From contig CAZSKP010000023.1 of the NCBI GenBank assembly GCA_964607485.1, forward strand, positions 1-64,000: DNA of 64,000 nucleotides, read 5' to 3'. Both the position numbers and the translations under genes were made by a program. The notes below the pieces were generated by a model. The model did no database searches. It saw nothing but the letters and a program-made list of their open reading frames with translations, and had not been told where the DNA came from. The DNA is from an uncultured bacterium. Lineage in GTDB: Bacteria; Abyssobacteria; SURF-5. Below, in pieces: positions 25,327-35,416 of this stretch. Every line of letters begins with the position of its first letter. Position 1 is the stretch's first letter.

Positions 25327-25592
25327 GTCCGCAGATTACGCAGATTTTTGCTGATTATTGACATATGTATAAGCATTGCAAAAGCCTTTGTTTCGTCATT
25401 CCCGCTTACGCGGGAATCCAGAACGTCAAAATGGTTGTGAGCTTACTGGATGCCCGCTCCCCGATCGGGTCGAGGACATGTTTCGCGGGCATGACATTCC
25501 CTGCTTTACTTAAACAGAAACCTATAATCAGGAACGTTCATCCTGATGCAGTCGTTGGGTTCAATCTGCGCCCATCTGCGTAATCTGTGGAT
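25327..25592. repeat. 30-bp CRCAGAT-type inverted-repeat pair, no gene cargo
   Basis: Arms 25327-25356 and 25563-25592, 23/30 complementary. Confidence 0.85.
25395..25495. repeat. REP/dRS3-like palindromic element nested in the 30-bp pair
   Basis: GTCATTCCCGCTTACGCGGGAATCCAG ... CTGGATGCCCGC...GCGGGCATGAC. Confidence 0.85.
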
Positions 25593-25600
25593 GAAATCGG

Positions 25601-28600
25601 TCATCTCTGATAGATCACTTCCATCTTCTTCGAGGATGTCACTTCCTCTTCCTCGATGATTCCGTTGTTGTTCGCGTCGGTGGCGGCCTGGCCCAGGACG
25701 ATTATCTTGTAGACGTCTGACCTCGCGGTTATCAGCCCGGAGATGTTTCTGAACACGTCCGGCGTGAAGAAATAACCGGGATTGGCTGAGGCATCCTGCA
25801 TCTGTATTTCACTCGCCCGGTAAACGTCGCCGATCGACTCGAATGCCCGGATATTCCGTGCCTGAATTATGGCGTCGGCGTAATCGCTCTTCGTCGGCGT
25901 CTCCGACCACGCGGCCGAGGAATCGTCCAGGTTGGGCAGTTCGAGCCGCAGCCCCTGCAGCACTTGGTGGCTCGCCGTGTTGACGTTGATGCGGCCGAAC
26001 GTTTGCGGCGGCGGCGCGAGCACCGCGCGGATGAAGTGATACTGCACGGCAGCGGCGGCGGCGTTCCGGATGGTCAAGTTCAGCATGGCCTGCTGACCCG
26101 GCGAGGTCTTTGCGATCGTCACGGGACCGACGTAGATCGGAATCTCGGTTGCCTGGGTCGAGCCGTAGTTTACGACGCTGTAGAGGTCATAGGTGCCCTC
26201 CTGCACGCCGGCATCTTCATCCCATGTGAGCGTAAAGTTGGTACTCGCTCCCGGCGGGACAGTGTACACTTCCGGATCGTCCGTGTCGGGCCAGGACGCT
26301 GCGGCAGCCGTTATGAGAGAACTAAAGAGTGACCCGTTCGTCATGCTTTCGCCGACCGCCCAGTATTTGGCGACCGAAGAGGGTTTGAAGAAAATCCAAT
26401 TGTTCGTCGTATCGACACCGACGAGGCTATCAGATTCGGTTCTAGTGGAATTGGTTATAGCGCTGCCGACCGAGAGTTCGCTGTCATCGGCTAAGGCACT
26501 GTACTGGATCGCGACATTTGCCGCTGCGGCCTCGAGGTCGATGCACGCCGTGGTGAAGTAGTCGGCAAGGCCGCGCACGTCGGCGGATTTTTCACGTACA
26601 GAAGTTATGGTGGCCGCGCCCGCCGCGTAGCTTATCGTCTCGCCCACCTTCCACTCGGTGACAGGGTCGCCCGAGGCCTGATTCATTGTCAACTGGATGA
26701 CCTTGTTATCCGGATCCGTTGTATCCACAACTGTTGCAATGCCGCTCTGGTTGGGGTCTTTCGATGTGTTGGTGATCGTGTCGCTGGCCGAGGGGTCGGC
26801 CGTCTCGTTTGCGTAGCCTATCTCCACGTAGAAGTCCATCTCGTCGCCGAGGTAGGTGTCCATCATCTTCACCGAGCTGATGGTCGCGCCGAAGTCGACG
26901 GTCGGGTCGGAGCCGTCGTCTGTCATCCAGTCGCCGAACTTCCACGTGGACACGGGATTCTGGAAATCGCCCCGCAAGACCATCCAGCCGCTGGGCCCCA
27001 ACTGGTTGACGGTCGAGCCGTAGTCGGTGGTGTTGATGGCGAGGATGACGGCCGTCTGGTTGTTCTCATCCTCGTTGATGATGACATCGCCGACGCTGAG
27101 CTTGAGGTCGTCGGTGGTGCCTGCGACGGTCTCGTCGTAGCCCACGACGGCGATGTACTCATGGAAAAGCGGCGCCCTCACCAGTTCGCCGGGGCCGGCG
27201 AGGTTGCGGTCCTTCACCTTACACTCGGCCGTGGCGACGCGCCGGTCGTAGCTGACGCTCCGATTGTTCGCCTCGGCGGGTGTCATGAACCCGGCGCTAC
27301 CCCGTGAGTTGGGCGAATAGTTGACGAACTCCGTCGTCGAGAGCGTGGGATCGACGTTCGGATCGGTCAGCCACGGGTCGTTCCAGAACTTCCAGTCGTC
27401 GTAGGCGCCGTCGGCGACGACGTTGTAGTAGCCGGGGTAGTTCCAAGGATAAGAAAGCGTTGCAATATAAGAACGCATCTTGAAGTTCTGGTCGGCGTTG
27501 AGCCGTTCTCCGGGATTGGCGGGATGGTCGCGCTGCAGGCTGGCGAACGCCTCGGCCACGTTGCCTGCATCGTAGGTCACCTGGTCAACCAGGTTGCCGT
27601 TCGCATCGTAGAGCGACACCTTTCCGGCCTCAACATTGAAGACGACATCGTCAGTGCCGTCGGCGGTGCCCCGCACATCCACGGCGGAGGTATTGTTATT
27701 CGGATTGTCCAGCGGCTCATTGCCGAAGAAATCTATCCCGCCGGAATAGATGTTCGAGATGGATGCGAGTTGATAGACGTTTGCGCTTGTCGCCAGTGTG
27801 GACCATACGGTGTCGAACGAGATGCCGTTGCTGATGGTGGCAGACGCCCCCGCGTTGTCGGTTCTGTCGATAACGAACACGATGTAGTGGGGCGGCCCGG
27901 GCGCCCACACGGTCGGGTCGTCAACGGGCAGTATGCCCACGTCGGGCAGCGACAACTGAAAGCTTTCCGAAACATACTTGGCCAGCGCGGTCTCATCCAC
28001 ATCCTTCGTGTACTCCGAGACGATGGTCCAGTTATTGACGTTGACGGTCTGGTCGCCGATGTTCACCAGCTCAATCCACTCGCAGTCGGGCTCAAGCGTG
28101 AAATAGAACCAGTCGACGTCAACGTCATCAACGTAGTCTGACGCACTTCCTGACGTAGGCCGTGGCTTCTCGAAATAGACTGAGTTGTCGCCGCCATGAA
28201 GGCGCGCATCCCCGAATGTGGCGTTGTCAGACAGAATGGCTTCCTCCACGTACCACACATTATTGGGGGTGGATTGCGGCGAAGGCTTGGTCGCCCACCT
28301 GCAATTCTGGCCGTTCAAGTAACCGGTGCCTGGATCACCGGGATCGGAACCGAGCCCGGAATAAATGACCGGGTTTCCATTAACATATACTCTGAAGCCG
28401 GTGTCGGCAGTATTGGAGAGAGTTTGGGTTCCCGAGCTCCGTACTCTCATCCTAAGTTTGAACGCGTATCCGGTTGCGGAGTCGAAAGGAGGGTCAGGCA
28501 AAGTGACCGTAACCACGGCAGATGTTTCACTCGCTGAGTTGTTTGGCCACGCGTCGGGATTCGTCAGATAATCTTCAGTTCCGCGAGGCGAGCCTGCGCC

Positions 28601-30391
28601 TTGCGCTACAGGATTCAACCCATAAAAGATCGCCGTCTCCCAATCATTCGCAATCCCGGTATAAAGCCATTCCCCTTCGTACAGGTTTGTGGCGGCGCGG
28701 ACGAGGACCTCATTTATGCGGATGGCCTCGACGCCGGCGAAGACGTCTCCGGCGGTGTCGCGGAGTTCGGCGCGCGAATTGCTTCGGTCGCGATAATCGT
28801 AGATGTTCGCGGCGGCCTGCATGTTGCGGAGGTCGGGCCGTTCAAACGCATCGGTGTCGAACGCATTAATGGACGGGAAGGCGGCATGCACGGCGGCCAG
28901 GTTCTGCTCGGGTATGGAGAAGTTGGGGTTAATCCGAAGCTCCTCGTCTCTGTTCAGGTTACGGTCGTGGGAGAGGGTGGACATGAAGTGGCGACGGTCG
29001 CGCGCCGTATTGGTCGAGCCGTCGAAGTTGGTGCTGATCGTGCCGGTCAAGAAGCCGCTCAGGCCGACGGCCGCCGAGTCCTCGAGCTGCTCGAGCGTGA
29101 GTATGGGCTGGTCGTCGGCTTCGTTGGTTTCATCGGTAATTCCATTACTGTTATCGTCGGAGCCATTATAGTCAAGCGGGGTTCCCCGATACGGCCTCAG
29201 CGGGCGGAATTCCTCCGGCTCGTTAATCCCCTCTGTCGCCTCATCGACGGTGCCGTCGCCGTCGTTGTCAACGCCGTCGTTGGCATAGAACAGCCGGTTG
29301 TAGTTGTCGTCGTCGTCGTTGAAGCTGGCCGGGTCGTACGTGGTCGTGTCGGACCACATGTCGTTCTGGCCGGGAACATAAATCCGGTTTTTATCCGTGC
29401 CGTCGCCGGGAGTAAACGTCCAGCCCGGCCCGGGCGACGCGGTCGGCGGGAACCCCCGCCGATACATGGTGATATTCCTCGCCTCAGTGGAGGTTGCATT
29501 GAGGCCGTCGGTGAGGCTGATCTCAAATGGGCTCCATCCCTCGTTCGCTCCGTGTCCCCAGCCGTTGGAATAGTCCTTCCACGTTCCGACGAGGTTGGCG
29601 AGATTGCCCGCGACGTTGATGTTGATCTTGCTCTGCTCGTCTAGGATGAGCACGGCGTAGCGGCCGATGAGGTTGCCGCTCTGGTCGTAGTAGTTGTGCC
29701 AGATGGCGTCGAGTGTGCTGGGATCGCTGGAGTCATAGTCGCCGTCGAGGTCAACCTCGTCGGGCTTGGAGACGGTGACGACCGCGACATTAAATAGATT
29801 GCTGGCCTGGTCGCGTTTTCCGACCAGTCTGTCGCCAACCTCCCAGAGTGCGGTCGAAAGCGAGTTGAGGTACAGGAGGTTATTGTTGGTGTCGATGGCA
29901 ATGACCTTCGCCGTGACCCCTTCGCGGGGCGGATCGGCGTCGGCGGGCTCGACGTTCGTTACCGTGTCGCCCGCCGCGAGCCCCAACTCGTTGCCATCGG
30001 TTATCGTGTCGTCGTAACTGATGACCACCGGGGCGGAGAACATCCGCCGCCAGTCGTCGCGGAGCGAGTCGTAGGTCTCGGTCACGGGCACAGTCGGGTC
30101 GCGCAGGTCGCCGGTGCGTTTTATCTTGTCGGCCTCGAGCACGTAGATGGCGTTGGCCGCTCCCGCCTCGGCGATGTCGGTGGCGGTGACGGTGCGCATG
30201 TACGCCTCGGATGCGCGCAGACTCAGGCGTGTCGAGAACACGAACGAGACGGCCATGACCGTCAAGAGCGCGAGTATGCCCAGCACGACGATCAACACCG
30301 CGCCGCTGTTAGAACGGCGAATTTTCACAAGAAGAGAACCTTTAATAGCCACATACTTCACTAAGCTCAAGAGACTTTTCCAGAAATGCAT
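25601..30391 (-). CDS. Giant PilX/GspK-like minor pilin (~1590 aa) with lamin-tail-like and HhH-like segments
   Basis: G-AVLIVVLGILALL (no E5), AEAG, DEQSKININ, IRINEV...EWIELVN, GRINVNTAS, ITARSDVYKI; start may be GTG 30328. Confidence 0.85.
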   Translation of the reverse strand: MHFWKSLLSLVKYVAIKGSLLVKIRRSNSGAVLIVVLGILALLTVMAVSFVFSTRLSLRASEAYMRTVTATDIAEAGAANAIYVLEADKIKRTGDLRDPTVPVTETYDSLRDDWRRMFSAPVVISYDDTITDGNELGLAAGDTVTNVEPADADPPREGVTAKVIAIDTNNNLLYLNSLSTALWEVGDRLVGKRDQASNLFNVAVVTVSKPDEVDLDGDYDSSDPSTLDAIWHNYYDQSGNLIGRYAVLILDEQSKININVAGNLANLVGTWKDYSNGWGHGANEGWSPFEISLTDGLNATSTEARNITMYRRGFPPTASPGPGWTFTPGDGTDKNRIYVPGQNDMWSDTTTYDPASFNDDDDNYNRLFYANDGVDNDGDGTVDEATEGINEPEEFRPLRPYRGTPLDYNGSDDNSNGITDETNEADDQPILTLEQLEDSAAVGLSGFLTGTISTNFDGSTNTARDRRHFMSTLSHDRNLNRDEELRINPNFSIPEQNLAAVHAAFPSINAFDTDAFERPDLRNMQAAANIYDYRDRSNSRAELRDTAGDVFAGVEAIRINEVLVRAATNLYEGEWLYTGIANDWETAIFYGLNPVAQGAGSPRGTEDYLTNPDAWPNNSASETSAVVTVTLPDPPFDSATGYAFKLRMRVRSSGTQTLSNTADTGFRVYVNGNPVIYSGLGSDPGDPGTGYLNGQNCRWATKPSPQSTPNNVWYVEEAILSDNATFGDARLHGGDNSVYFEKPRPTSGSASDYVDDVDVDWFYFTLEPDCEWIELVNIGDQTVNVNNWTIVSEYTKDVDETALAKYVSESFQLSLPDVGILPVDDPTVWAPGPPHYIVFVIDRTDNAGASATISNGISFDTVWSTLATSANVYQLASISNIYSGGIDFFGNEPLDNPNNNTSAVDVRGTADGTDDVVFNVEAGKVSLYDANGNLVDQVTYDAGNVAEAFASLQRDHPANPGERLNADQNFKMRSYIATLSYPWNYPGYYNVVADGAYDDWKFWNDPWLTDPNVDPTLSTTEFVNYSPNSRGSAGFMTPAEANNRSVSYDRRVATAECKVKDRNLAGPGELVRAPLFHEYIAVVGYDETVAGTTDDLKLSVGDVIINEDENNQTAVILAINTTDYGSTVNQLGPSGWMVLRGDFQNPVSTWKFGDWMTDDGSDPTVDFGATISSVKMMDTYLGDEMDFYVEIGYANETADPSASDTITNTSKDPNQSGIATVVDTTDPDNKVIQLTMNQASGDPVTEWKVGETISYAAGAATITSVREKSADVRGLADYFTTACIDLEAAAANVAIQYSALADDSELSVGSAITNSTRTESDSLVGVDTTNNWIFFKPSSVAKYWAVGESMTNGSLFSSLITAAAASWPDTDDPEVYTVPPGASTNFTLTWDEDAGVQEGTYDLYSVVNYGSTQATEIPIYVGPVTIAKTSPGQQAMLNLTIRNAAAAAVQYHFIRAVLAPPPQTFGRINVNTASHQVLQGLRLELPNLDDSSAAWSETPTKSDYADAIIQARNIRAFESIGDVYRASEIQMQDASANPGYFFTPDVFRNISGLITARSDVYKIIVLGQAATDANNNGIIEEEEVTSSKKMEVIYQR

Positions 30392-30400
30392 TTTTTTCTT

Positions 30401-30869
30401 ATCCGCAGATTGCGCAGATTCTCACAGATTTCTCCGTTTCAATTCCGCCACTTTTCCATTTCCATGGATGAATCTTCTAAACTCCAATGAGGCGGCGCCG
30501 AAGTTAAGCAATAGACCGACTTCCTTCTTTGCCGCTTTCAAATAATTGATGACCTGAGATTCTTCGTTTGGAGTCAATCTTGAAAGTGCCTTGATTTCAA
30601 CTACGACAGAATCGGAAGCCAAAAAATCGGGACTGTACTTTTTCTTCAAGAAGATATCCTTATATCGGATTTCGATCTGCGGCTCATCGGAATATGAAAC
30701 GCCTTTTCGTGTCATCTCAATCCCAAGAGCTTCGTGATATACTGGCTCAAGGAAGCCCGGTCCAAGCTCCTTGTGCACTTCCATTGCAGCGCCTATAACC
30801 TCATAAGTGATTTCTGCAAATGGGTACTTGTCCATATTCAATCTGTGCAAATCTGCGTAATCTGCGGAT
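30401..30869. mobile_element. Putative cassette: 30-bp inverted repeats enclosing a GxxExxY gene
   Basis: Arms 30401-30430 and 30840-30869, 27/30 complementary; interior about 45% GC by hand count (30481-30780); mobility is inferred. Confidence 0.6.
30422..30835 (-). CDS. GxxExxY protein (PD-(D/E)XK nuclease-like)
   Basis: IGAAMEVHKELGPGFLEPVY, PDFL...VVVEIKA, QVINYLKA, GLLLNFG. Confidence 0.95.
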   Translation of the reverse strand: MDKYPFAEITYEVIGAAMEVHKELGPGFLEPVYHEALGIEMTRKGVSYSDEPQIEIRYKDIFLKKKYSPDFLASDSVVVEIKALSRLTPNEESQVINYLKAAKKEVGLLLNFGAASLEFRRFIHGNGKVAELKRRNL

Positions 30870-30880
30870 TATCATCCCGT

Positions 30881-32938
30881 TCATCTTGCCGTTGAGAGCC
30901 AGACGGTGGTGCTGAGAATGACCGGCTCGAGCGTTTGCTGCGGGTCTTGGACCGCGATGGTGATGCGCACGGCCTTCGGCAGCGTGTCGTCGTCGGGGTC
31001 GGCCTCGTCGGGCTCGTCGATTCCCTCGGGCTTGCCCGCCGGCTCGTAGAACCGGTCATCGACCATGTTGTCGGAGTCGTCGTCCAATAAGTCGTTTGTT
31101 TCGTCAACGACCGTTCCCGTGTTGTCGGACTCGGGCGTGGCATAATCGATAAGCTGTCCGTCCGACAGGGTGATGAGCGTTCCGGTTCCATCATAATGGG
31201 TGTTGAGTCTGTCGTCGTTTTGACCATCCTGATCATCATCGGTGCTGTTGTATGCGATGCCGGAGCCCGCGCTCCCATCTCCGTAATCGTAATCATCGTC
31301 CCATCCGTTCAGCTCACTCGCCCTTCTCGGATTGCGCGGGTCGGGTGAGCGGCTGTCCCAAATGCCCATCACGCGGCTGTCGAGCCGCTTGTTGCCCTCG
31401 CCGATGCTCGTCTCGGAGGTGGTGCCGTCGTTGTCGCTCACGTTGTTCGGGATATCAGAGCCGCCATCGTCGAGCGGATCGTTGACGATCCCGTCGGCGC
31501 CGAGGTCCTCGGGGAACACAGGGTTCGACACGGTACCCGTGTTGTCGAGGATTCCGTTCGCCTGTGTCGGCTCGATGATACGATAATTTACCGTGCCACT
31601 TGTTCCCGTGTAAGGACGATTCAACTGCAGATTACCTGACACGATGTCAGTGATTGCATAAACATCATTATTGGGATCGGCGGTGTCGAATGTATAACCC
31701 GTGGGAGGCGAGGAAGGCCAGACCATGAATGTTCCTCCAACGAGTTTGGTGAGCGTCGCGGGCCAGACGGGAACATCGATGGTGTCTGGAGCTACTTGAT
31801 CGCTGCCCTTGGTCACTTGTACTTTACCGCTCTTTATCGCAAGCGGGCCCAAATCGTTCGAGTCACTCAATTCCCCTTCACAATCCGTCCCCATGTCCTC
31901 TCCCCGAACATCCTGGTATCCCCAGCCGACGCCCCAGACCTCGGGCGAGCCATCGGATTTCAACGCGATTGCGATCTTTCCGTAGAACTCAAGCTGGAGG
32001 TCGTAGATGTATGAGCCGATGCTCTCGCCGTCGTTCGACGACAGAAAATCATTAAAGTCTCGGGCGGGGTAGCGGCCCTGTGTCGTGCCGGTCGGCAACT
32101 CGTTGGCGGTTTGCCTATTGTTGACGGAAAACGGATTCTTATCGGGTGTGATATCGAGCCCGCGGCTCAGTTGGAACAGAGAGAGGCCTTTTATCTTCCT
32201 GGTCACGGGATTGAAGTCGTCCTTGTGGCCCATCGGTATCAGGTCGCCAAGACCGGTGAGGCCGCCCGCGCCCGGCGGGGTGTAGTCAGATGCGTCGACC
32301 AAACTGTCATAGTCGTTATCCACGTCGTCGATGAACGTCTCGGTGGTGACGATGTAGCGCACCTCTGCCAGCCGCGATTGATTACTGGTGTTGCCGGGGA
32401 AAAGGCGCGTGAAGCAGGTGAAGTCGAGCCTGTCGGGCGGGCCGGGTGACAGTGTGTAGATATCGCTGATGGCTTTGATCGACAGCGTGGTGTATATGGG
32501 AGCGCCGAAACCGCTGTCGGCATACAGCCTGAACACCTCGATGCCTGTTGGGTCGACGCCGTGAGGAGTCTGGGCGTTGCCGAGGCCGCGGTATGTGATG
32601 TTGTAAGTTCCGGGCGGGTTTTCGTAATATTCCAGGATGCTGCTTCCCCGGCCGGCCAGGCCGTCGGCGCTTATGAATATGAAATCGCGGTTGCGGTTGT
32701 CGATGTATGCGTTCTTAATCTCCCCGGCCATGATGTCGAGCGCGACGCGCGCATTCTGGTAAATCTGCTCGCGGGCCTCGCCGATGGCGGCGCTGCGCTG
32801 GGTGGTCTGGAACGCGGCAATGACGCCGAGTATGAGTATGCTCGCTATCGCCACCGCGACGAGCAGCTCAACGAGAGTGACGCCCTTTTGACCGCGACTA
32901 CTCACGGACCGAGGTCCTTTCCCAACTTTGGATTCCAC
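30881..32938 (-). CDS. PilW/GspJ-like minor pilin, 685 aa
   Basis: G-VTLVELLVAVAI prepilin motif, QNARVALD, C-terminal LPKAVRITI. Confidence 0.88.
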   Translation of the reverse strand: MESKVGKGPRSVSSRGQKGVTLVELLVAVAIASILILGVIAAFQTTQRSAAIGEAREQIYQNARVALDIMAGEIKNAYIDNRNRDFIFISADGLAGRGSSILEYYENPPGTYNITYRGLGNAQTPHGVDPTGIEVFRLYADSGFGAPIYTTLSIKAISDIYTLSPGPPDRLDFTCFTRLFPGNTSNQSRLAEVRYIVTTETFIDDVDNDYDSLVDASDYTPPGAGGLTGLGDLIPMGHKDDFNPVTRKIKGLSLFQLSRGLDITPDKNPFSVNNRQTANELPTGTTQGRYPARDFNDFLSSNDGESIGSYIYDLQLEFYGKIAIALKSDGSPEVWGVGWGYQDVRGEDMGTDCEGELSDSNDLGPLAIKSGKVQVTKGSDQVAPDTIDVPVWPATLTKLVGGTFMVWPSSPPTGYTFDTADPNNDVYAITDIVSGNLQLNRPYTGTSGTVNYRIIEPTQANGILDNTGTVSNPVFPEDLGADGIVNDPLDDGGSDIPNNVSDNDGTTSETSIGEGNKRLDSRVMGIWDSRSPDPRNPRRASELNGWDDDYDYGDGSAGSGIAYNSTDDDQDGQNDDRLNTHYDGTGTLITLSDGQLIDYATPESDNTGTVVDETNDLLDDDSDNMVDDRFYEPAGKPEGIDEPDEADPDDDTLPKAVRITIAVQDPQQTLEPVILSTTVWLSTAR

Positions 32939-32949
32939 GAAAGACTCTC

Positions 32950-33124
32950 ATCCGCAGATCTCACAGATTTTCACAAATGTCCCCTCAGCAAGAGTCATCA
33001 ATCAGACGCTCACGGAACCACCAAGGCACAAAGGCACAAAGAAAAACTCTCCTTTTCTTCTACTTCGTGTCTTGGTGCCTTTGTGGTTCATTTTTGTCTG
33101 CGCCAATCTGCGTAATCTGCGGAT
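32950..33124. repeat. 30-bp CRCAGAT-type inverted-repeat pair, no gene cargo
   Basis: Arms 32950-32979 and 33095-33124. Confidence 0.85.
33015..33089. repeat. Nested 27-bp CACNAAG-type (8-bp period) inverted-repeat pair
   Basis: GAACCACCAAGGCACAAAGGCACAAAG / CTTCGTGTCTTGGTGCCTTTGTGGTTC, 23/27 complementary, 21-nt loop. Confidence 0.88.
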
Positions 33125-34212: not shown

Positions 34213-34294
34213 AACCACGGATTCGCACGGATTTCTTCAGAGCATCCACTAAGGGCGCGAAGGACCACGAAGGAAACACTTCGTGAGCTTCGTG
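34213..34294. repeat. CACGGAT-type arm plus CRCGAAG-type hairpin
   Basis: AACCACGGATTCGCACGGATT at 34213; CACTAAG-gg-CGCGAAG-gac-CACGAAG against CTTCGTG-ag-CTTCGTG. Confidence 0.7.
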
Positions 34295-34343
34295 AACAAA
34301 TCTTTGCAACCGTAAAGCGCAAGCCGTAGGCGGTAGCACCCAT

Positions 34344-35170: not shown

Positions 35171-35416
35171 CACCCGCGAAAATCTGCACATCATGCGGAT
35201 TCATTTCAATAATACACCGGGTCCGGCGCGTGAGCACCGCCGTAGAGATGCTCGATTCACCCGGACCCGGTGTTACCCGGGGAAAGGGCTCTTTATGAAA
35301 ACATTTTGGATTTTGGATTTTGGATTAACCTCCGTCGTGTATTTATCGCCTCTTTCCCGTCTCCGCTTGCCTCGCGTGCTTCGCGCAGTTGCGGCAAAAT
35401 CCGTAATCCGCAATCG
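35171..35416. repeat. Cluster of palindromic elements
   Basis: Degenerate 30-bp arm 35171-35200; 13-bp perfect stem 35214-35226/35261-35273; (ATTTTGG)x3 at 35303-35323 against AAAATCC-GTAATCC-GCAATCG at 35396-35416. Confidence 0.75.

Follow-up and report, generated by a model that had tools for sequence, protein, structure and literature searches.

A GxxExxY nuclease-like gene boxed by inverted word-array arms in a pseudopilus operon, with counterparts in many phyla

The cassette and the operon around it

The DNA analyzed here, referred to as the window, is a 64,000-nucleotide stretch of contig CAZSKP010000023.1 (assembly GCA_964607485.1) from an uncultured bacterium of the Abyssobacteria, whose genome (the source genome, G000) comprises 4.70 Mb in 93 contigs at 57% GC. 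A minus-strand run of genes in the window encodes a sigma-54 activator, GspG-, H-, I-, and J-like pseudopilins, the cassette that is the subject of this report, a 1596-aa GspK-like protein followed by an 810-aa Ig-domain protein (here called "L"), a PilM-like protein, and a secretin. Profile matches in the run comprise N_methyl in four genes, T2SSG, a weak GspK match, PilM_2, and Secretin. The prepilin N-terminal methylation motifs, the GspG/H/I/J/K-like gene order, and the secretin identify it, in a broad sense, as a pseudopilus operon of the type II secretion-like kind, since most scores fall short of the equivalog cut-offs. The cassette, a unit of 469 bp, lies between the J-like and K-like genes:

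30881..32938, minus strand: pseudopilin J-like gene, the upstream neighbor; its stop codon is 11 nt from the arm
30840..30869, minus strand: arm on the 5' side of the cassette gene; words CGCAGATT, CGCAGATT, and CACAGATT with 1-2 nt spacers, outer end ATCC
30422..30835, minus strand: GxxExxY / PDDEXK_3 gene, 137 aa (TIGR04256, PF13366)
30401..30430, minus strand: arm on the 3' side of the cassette gene; inverted partner of the other arm (27/30), with all three mismatches in the spacers between words
25601..30391, minus strand: GspK-like 1596-aa gene, the downstream neighbor; its listed ATG is 9 nt from the arm

The two arms (30401-30430 and 30840-30869) form an inverted repeat of 30 nt that is complementary at 27 of 30 positions (90%) across an interval of 409 nt, as the first-pass annotation of this DNA had described. 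In each arm the word C[G/A]CAGATT occurs three times, 9-10 nt apart, and the outer end, read in gene sense, is ATCC. A two-word pattern with at most one mismatch has 7 matches in the window against 0.08 expected from shuffled sequence, and 7 was reached in 0 of 100 shuffles. The tight fit between arms and gene, another feature pointed out in that annotation, was borne out: four bases (30836-30839) lie between the ATG of the open reading frame (30835-30833) and one arm's inner edge, and the stop codon TGA (30422-30424) falls within the other. The same holds for the low GC content ascribed to the interior, which is 0.40-0.47 compared with 0.64-0.66 in the flanking genes, and for the missing target-site duplication, since the sequences that flank the cassette ends, TTTTTTTCTT and TATCATCCCG, are unlike each other. 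Rfam at gathering thresholds returned zero families in the window, with no rRNA match, and zero in 40 related loci. As identities of the arms, a chance repeat and a CRISPR-like array were considered and rejected, as was, on informal inspection, an integron attC site: no integrase was seen, and arms are present on both sides. Next to the cassette, the first ~30 codons of the GspK-like gene (30300-30391) have a low GC content, occur nowhere else in the genome, and lack a match in the K gene of a related genome, G010; the true start of this gene may lie further in, and 30300-30391 may be old insert sequence.

The cassette gene belongs to GxxExxY/PDDEXK_3, a large family that spans many phyla and has no assigned function. 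Its 137-aa product matches TIGR04256 at 3e-40 (137.2 bits against a curated cut-off of 35, model positions 1-116) and PF13366 at 6e-39 (133.4 bits against a cut-off of 22). In the tabulation of PMC3424549, PDDEXK_3 is entered with unknown function and multiple transfers. In an alignment of the window protein with 12 relatives, G25, G27, E30, Y33, D70, E80, K82, Q94, and Y98 are invariant, and the window protein retains a complete D...ExK core plus the QxxxY motif. A sequence search of the PDB gave one chance-level match only. The AlphaFold (AF2) model of the protein (pLDDT 88, pTM 0.82) has its best PDB folds in Cas4 SSO0001, lambda exonuclease, and restriction-endonuclease-like proteins (E ~4e-4, TM ~0.5). 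Pfam returned only PF13366 and a weak DUF7487 match for the cassette protein; neither an HUH/Y1 (Y1_Tnp-type) transposase domain nor a DDE, serine, or tyrosine recombinase was found in the cassette by Pfam. Compared with its closest relative found, a copy in genome G003 described below, the gene has a dN of 0.157, a dS of 1.90, and a dN/dS of 0.08. A ratio this low reflects purifying selection, which maintains the protein.

Turnover at the operon junctions

Periodic-word elements occur at all five junctions of the operon in the source genome (G-H, H-I, I-J, J-K, and K-L). Three elements have CGCAGAT arms, namely, the cassette at J-K and two gene-less ones (25327-25592 and 32950-33124). Those at H-I, I-J, and K-L are as follows:

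34213..34297, no strand assigned: H-I junction; a lone two-word CACGGAT arm, then a short CACGAAG-class hairpin
32950..33124, no strand assigned: gene-less element at the I-J junction; CGCAGAT-class outer arms at 32950-32979 and 33095-33124
33019-33041 and 33063-33085, no strand assigned: hairpin nested inside the I-J element, of another class (CACCAAG/CACAAAG)
25327..25592, no strand assigned: gene-less shell at the K-L junction, after the GspK-like gene; CGCAGAT-class arms at 25327-25356 and 25563-25592

Two other dispersed repeat families make up the inside of the K-L shell (25357-25560): one of ~80 nt, also present on contigs C14 and C12, and one of ~50 nt, also present on C4 and C13, that includes a short GC hairpin. 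The G-H spacer holds a repeat of TTTTGGA with a 7-nt period (35303-35326; AATCCAAAA on the other strand). It belongs to a different word family without an assigned gene and is also found beside cassettes of G003 and G009, at 1478-1510 of L014 and, in L029, on the downstream side of the gene.

The phylum is represented by 11 genomes in the collection used, and the junctions compared in the source genome and its relatives have the following contents:

H-I: arm fragments in G000; an intact GxxExxY gene in G003; a lone arm in G007; a broken GxxExxY gene in G009
I-J: a CGCAGAT hairpin with a nested insert in G000; a CGCAGAT hairpin with a different nested insert in G003; N in the sequence of G007
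J-K: the CGCAGAT cassette in G000; a different GxxExxY gene with CACGGAT arms, plus several extra 3' arms, in G003; a 130-bp gene-less hairpin with CACGAAT arms in G007; empty in G010 (stop, 12 nt, start)
K-L: the CGCAGAT shell in G000; a CGCAGAT cassette in G003; four tandem CACGGAT arms and a gene in G006; a CACGAAT hairpin in G007; CACGGAT arms and a frameshifted gene in G009; nothing in G010

The stretches reading N are positions 1404-1500 of L013, which is the I-J junction of G007, and the upstream flank of L111.

The cassette is thus an insertion in the spacer between co-transcribed genes, and comparison of the same operon junctions shows that such insertions are acquired, lost, and exchanged for others. 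The J-K alleles, whose comparison the first-pass annotation had proposed, include an empty site in G010, a hairpin in G007, and a different cassette in G003; the gene is not fixed at this position, and its closest relative found stands at K-L. As is expected of a transposable element, relatives occupy different positions and empty sites exist. The shell at K-L in the source genome occupies the position where G003 has its gene-bearing cassette, and the shell's boundary with the start of the next gene is common to that cassette (L032). A tree built from 23 proteins of the family puts the window protein and the G003 K-L copy together as a pair (support, 100/99). The two are 75% identical, while identity to the G003 J-K copy is 49%; the latter is in turn 82.5% identical to the G006 K-L copy. 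By these pairings, two lineages have changed junction between genera, each occupying J-K in one genus but K-L in a different one. Because the relocated copies are only 75-82% identical, movement is old or rare, and arm-to-arm recombination between neighboring junctions could give relocation without the nuclease. Arms can also multiply on one side, given the extra 3' arms at J-K in G003 and the tandem arms at K-L in G006. The latter lie at ~800-1010 of L028 (G006:C100) on the minus strand, where four tandem direct three-word CACGGAT arms with purine-rich spacers precede the K-L gene.

The initial reading of the unit as a small mobile cassette therefore stands insofar as there is a discrete gene-plus-arms unit that comes and goes. 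An excised or circular junction was not seen. In contigs of four metagenome runs from one study, the fragments that cover the arm boundaries show the filled form, and across 29600-31700 there were no joints, empty site, or circle, although contigs would lose rare forms. The sequencing runs listed for this stretch, 11 entries from 5 studies, include none of RNA.

Arms in the source genome and across phyla

Seven GxxExxY genes are present in the source genome, and by eye all seven have inverted word-array arms, each with its own word (CGCAGAT, CACAGAT, CACCAAG, CACGGAG, CACGGGG, CGCCAAG/CGCAAAG, and CGCTAAT/CGCGAAT). An extra gene-less hairpin adjoins the gene in four of the seven cases. A genome scan yielded 145 three-word arrays, 98 of which fit the family. 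Among twenty plus/minus array pairs, 12 are hairpins of 63-207 bp, with an open reading frame of at least 50 aa in only 1 of them, and three carry a GxxExxY gene; the rest bracket larger low-GC cargo. The abundant arm classes CACAGAG, CACGAAG, and CACGAAT have no matching resident gene. Cargo lies between C-R-C arm pairs in L002 (C8:11754-12994), L003 (C10:18643-20558), L001 (C7:98787-100252), L004 (C78:4389-5886), and L005 (C4:186750-189399). The boxed cargo includes a 284-aa protein with CGCAGAT arms and a weak PADLOC match to a type II restriction enzyme (1e-6), a DEDDh exonuclease with a BRCT domain that matches the candidate defense family PDC-S48, and several proteins without a family. 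These loci may be small defense islands lodged between arms, or the larger pairs may be two separate hairpins that flank an island by coincidence.

Three-word arrays outnumber those of a reversed-pattern control in each of four genomes counted (G000, 112 against 13; G003, 349 against 34; G007, 81 against 10; G010, 152 against 35). The count for G007 comes from a 97%-complete assembly with 0 GxxExxY genes, so arrays persist without a resident nuclease gene. In the source genome, five contig ends (the ends of C78, C30, and C4 and the starts of C17 and C62) have a common sequence of 55-216 nt that is 78-100% identical. Beside it in C78, C17, and C62 is a fixed series of arrays, consisting of GGCGAAAAG words, a lone CGCAGAT arm, and GACTCCA words, with a CGCAAAG arm in addition in C62 and C78; lone arms therefore border an unassembled multi-copy element.

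We searched the window protein against one genome per species, which returned 42 loci in Planctomycetota, Verrucomicrobiota, Acidobacteriota, Bacteroidota, Chloroflexota, several proteobacterial groups, and others. With 200-nt flanks, inverted arms scoring at least 14 were found at 29 of 33 intact genes from other phyla and at 0 of 123 shifted controls (pseudo-genes displaced by 700-1000 nt), whose maximum was 13. A narrower-window test gave 16 of 42 against 0 of 156, an undercount, since many genes have their 3' arm within the last part of the open reading frame. In the family set, 19 of 23 genes reached a score of 14. The first-pass annotation had suggested that arms should be enriched around GxxExxY genes in general, and these counts, together with the seven of seven in the genome itself, agree with it. 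The upstream neighbor pointed the same way as the GxxExxY gene in 36 of 38 callable loci, and the downstream neighbor did so in 29 of 33; these figures come from a crude longest-ORF test, and since relatives are not independent, no p-value is attached to them. Arms of the form ATCC[G/A]CAGAT are also present on the nearest relatives in other phyla, which belong to Planctomycetota, Verrucomicrobiota, and Methylophaga and are 54% identical. Judging from the sequences compared, the CGCAGAT cassette is one of the gene-bearing representatives of a small-cassette family that is very widespread.

By hand count, the arms of the window cassette and its G003 relative are identical at 27 of 30 and 25 of 30 positions, while the coding sequences are 74% identical and synonymous sites approach saturation. 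In 49 gene-bearing elements, mismatches between the two arms affect 8.5% of positions in word cores (81/952) and 28.8% in spacers (51/177; Fisher p = 4e-12), with cores defined by repetition within one arm, a definition that favors slowly changing positions. Even with cores so defined, a plain helix would constrain spacers and words equally. G:U mismatches in the sense strand were not enriched (49 vs 35, p = 0.16, with 114 others). The word also follows the protein. In a 48-protein tree, the deepest starred split (98/98) sorts the words by their last letter without exception, with T or A in 20 of 20 members on one side and G in 28 of 28 on the other, and the word label changes 20 times on this tree compared with a minimum of 28 in 300 shuffles. 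The mismatch, G:U, and word-tree tests took 30 of the 33 intact genes, leaving out the armless L074, L080, and L087. Physical linkage matters here, as co-inheritance of gene and arms alone explains part of the match between words and clades. Taken together, the patterns point to arms that are very probably under selection and tied to the protein clade.

Genes of a second type are boxed by inverted word arrays too. The four-helix-bundle (TIGR02436) genes of G003 and G007 (L110, L113, L114, and L116) have such arms, with greatly different words (GGCGAAAG-like, AGCAAGT-like, and GAATGAT-like). G007 has 5 four-helix-bundle genes and 0 GxxExxY genes; no four-helix-bundle gene was found in the source genome, yet the latter has GGCGAAAAG arrays.

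Possible roles of the arms and the nuclease, and related systems

The reading that we prefer is of a selfish cassette made up of a promoter-less GxxExxY nuclease gene, with a PD-(D/E)XK fold like that of Cas4 and lambda exonuclease, boxed by inverted arms that would act as recognition arrays. Each arm comprises two to four copies of a 7-nt word, C-R-C-N-R-R-K, spaced 8-10 nt. The nuclease would be expressed by read-through from the host operon; as a multimer, it would bind the words in its own arms and cut at or between them; host recombination or repair would then copy or move the cassette into other spacers, preferably those that already bear arms. Copying into such spacers would account for the nested elements, the repeated use of sites, and the missing target duplication, and gene-less hairpins would represent either shells or copies that are not autonomous. 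At the RNA level, pairing of the arms would also give a stem of 28-30 bp that RNase III could cleave, as in 23S intervening sequences, and cutting there would limit the harm to the host operon. We put the probability of this statement as a whole, recognition of the arms by the protein included, at about 0.5.

Its parts carry different weights. That the cassette belongs to a family and is an insertion we regard as close to certain. Binding of the arms by the GxxExxY protein is slightly favored, and words that follow protein clades are what a nuclease reading its own arms predicts. We are more doubtful that the protein drives the movement of the cassette. To our knowledge, PD-(D/E)XK enzymes hydrolyze DNA and do not join strands; movement would therefore need host functions. 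Arms of the same kind also bracket other cargo and so could be read by something else. Further points against the nuclease as driver are the arrays that G007 has without a GxxExxY gene, the arm classes of the source genome that lack a resident gene, the failure to see an excision product, and the share of the word-clade match that linkage alone explains. In its boldest form, in which GxxExxY proteins read their own 7-nt word arrays and define a new class of mobile element that hops between operon spacers and phyla, the idea is a conjecture that we would not expect to hold in full.

The strongest competitor places the action of the arms mainly in RNA, in the manner of an intervening sequence (IVS): RNase III would cut the stem, the cassette would be released, and the J and K messages would be separated, while the nuclease would do something arm-independent, such as defense or repair. 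The predicted fold of the sense RNA does pair the arms as its outer stem (-155 kcal/mol, z -4.6), the size and anatomy match the 23S IVS of Coxiella as set out in PMC4990558, and the strong co-orientation with host genes is in keeping with a role in the transcript. A plain stem, however, has no need of repeated words, nor does it account for spacers that are mismatched 3.4 times more often than words or for words that follow protein clades across phyla; the G:U excess in the sense strand is not seen, and neither the window nor any of the 40 related loci falls in an rRNA gene or Rfam family (0/40). We consider this account unlikely, though it deserves more credit than the two that follow.

The arms might instead be read by a host or other trans-acting factor, in which case the space between them would be a landing pad for foreign low-GC genes and GxxExxY would be merely the commonest cargo. 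The restriction-enzyme-like 284-aa protein, the DEDDh exonuclease with BRCT, and the several unknown proteins bracketed by arms in the source genome fit such a pad, as do the nested elements and the arrays that G007 retains without a GxxExxY gene. Against this stand the tightly fitting arms on 29 of 33 GxxExxY genes in many phyla, the exact split of word type with the two main protein clades, and the other words used by four-helix-bundle genes; the larger cargo pairs may also be two unrelated hairpins around an island. On balance, a landing pad is improbable. Least plausible of all, and by some distance, is that the hairpins are stabilizers or attenuators setting the major:minor pseudopilin ratio of the operon, with the nuclease gene as a passenger, for although all five junctions in the source genome carry periodic-word elements, the operon is also occupied in G003, G006, G007, and G009, and paired word arrays in Geobacter are interpreted as regulator sites in PMC2700814, the G010 junctions looked at (J-K and K-L) are empty, the arm class at one junction varies between genera, and the same arms are found at about 100 unrelated places in the genome.

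Returning to the nuclease cassette, the gene-plus-arms design is real and widespread, and in the literature searched, as far as the retrieved text extends, it was not found described: searches on GxxExxY, PDDEXK_3, PF13366, and TIGR04256 returned no description of arms around these genes. The fixed architecture, that is, word-array arms, co-orientation with the host operon, purifying selection, and a word type tied to the protein clade, gives a family without an assigned function a concrete candidate substrate in its own word array. It would also account for a large part of the periodic hairpin repeats in the intergenic spacers of many environmental genomes. If the word is indeed specified by the protein clade, a specificity code could be worked out. 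The window operon adds empty, shell, filled, and replaced states junction by junction, along with two lineages that changed junction across genera.

Several known systems resemble the cassette in part. RAYTs are HUH/Y1 enzymes, and REPs are self-folding palindromes. As with REP/RAYT, a single gene is flanked by short repeats on which it presumably acts, many gene-less copies are intergenic, and every type of gene goes with a repeat type of its own. In contrast, the window cassette has no HUH/Y1 domain, its arms are direct arrays that pair only with each other, and several paralogous gene-and-word systems coexist in the source genome. The analogy to RAYT/REP that the first-pass annotation had drawn is thus apt as a functional likeness but fails as a strict parallel, given the different enzyme, the repeats that are not palindromes, and the 81 arrays of G007 without a gene. 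Free-standing homing endonuclease genes are small nuclease genes at the site that they recognize, are copied by repair, and leave no target duplication. The cassette is similar in that a nuclease gene stands at a would-be recognition site, no target duplication is seen, it would spread through copying by repair, and the same sites are invaded repeatedly; it differs in having no intron or intein, in a site that would be a split array of repeated words kept on both sides, and in gene-less sites that are multi-copy hairpins. MITEs and IS elements have terminal inverted repeats and short gene-less copies that outnumber the gene-bearing ones, and they insert into one another. The cassette family likewise has terminal inverted repeats, commoner gene-less copies, and nested insertions. 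Unlike MITEs and IS elements, it has no target-site duplication and no DDE, serine, or tyrosine recombinase, and each arm is repetitive within itself.

The "global regulator binding sites" of Geobacter metallireducens consist, in the account given in PMC2700814, of four or five tandem words of 7-8 nt, arranged as opposite-strand pairs at variable distance and present in tens of copies per genome. Their words differ from those described here (GTTGCTYN and MTYCTGA), and the relevant part of that source reads them as regulator sites and draws no link to a nuclease gene. The 23S IVS of Coxiella burnetii, as described in PMC4990558, is 428-444 nt long, with a 28-bp terminal stem that RNase III cuts within, a GC content below that of the genome, and one small open reading frame for the four-helix-bundle protein S23p, which is reported to be decaying; IVSs are sporadic, which suggests horizontal transfer, and are regarded there as selfish (PMC4990558). 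The window element has much in common with them, including a length of ~430-470 nt, terminal inverted repeats with a 28-30 bp stem, one small open reading frame, low GC, and sporadic occurrence, and in its predicted fold the 27/30 arms are the outer stem around the small frame. It differs in site, lying in the spacer of a protein-coding operon, with pseudopilin genes as flanks and no rRNA match, rather than in helix 25 or 45 of 23S rRNA. It also differs in content, with a PD-(D/E)XK GxxExxY protein in place of a four-helix-bundle S23p and with arms that are arrays of repeated words. Purifying selection on the window gene is strong, whereas the Coxiella frame is reported as decaying (PMC4990558). 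The cassette links periodic hairpins to the long-unexplained intervening sequences of rRNA that bear open reading frames.
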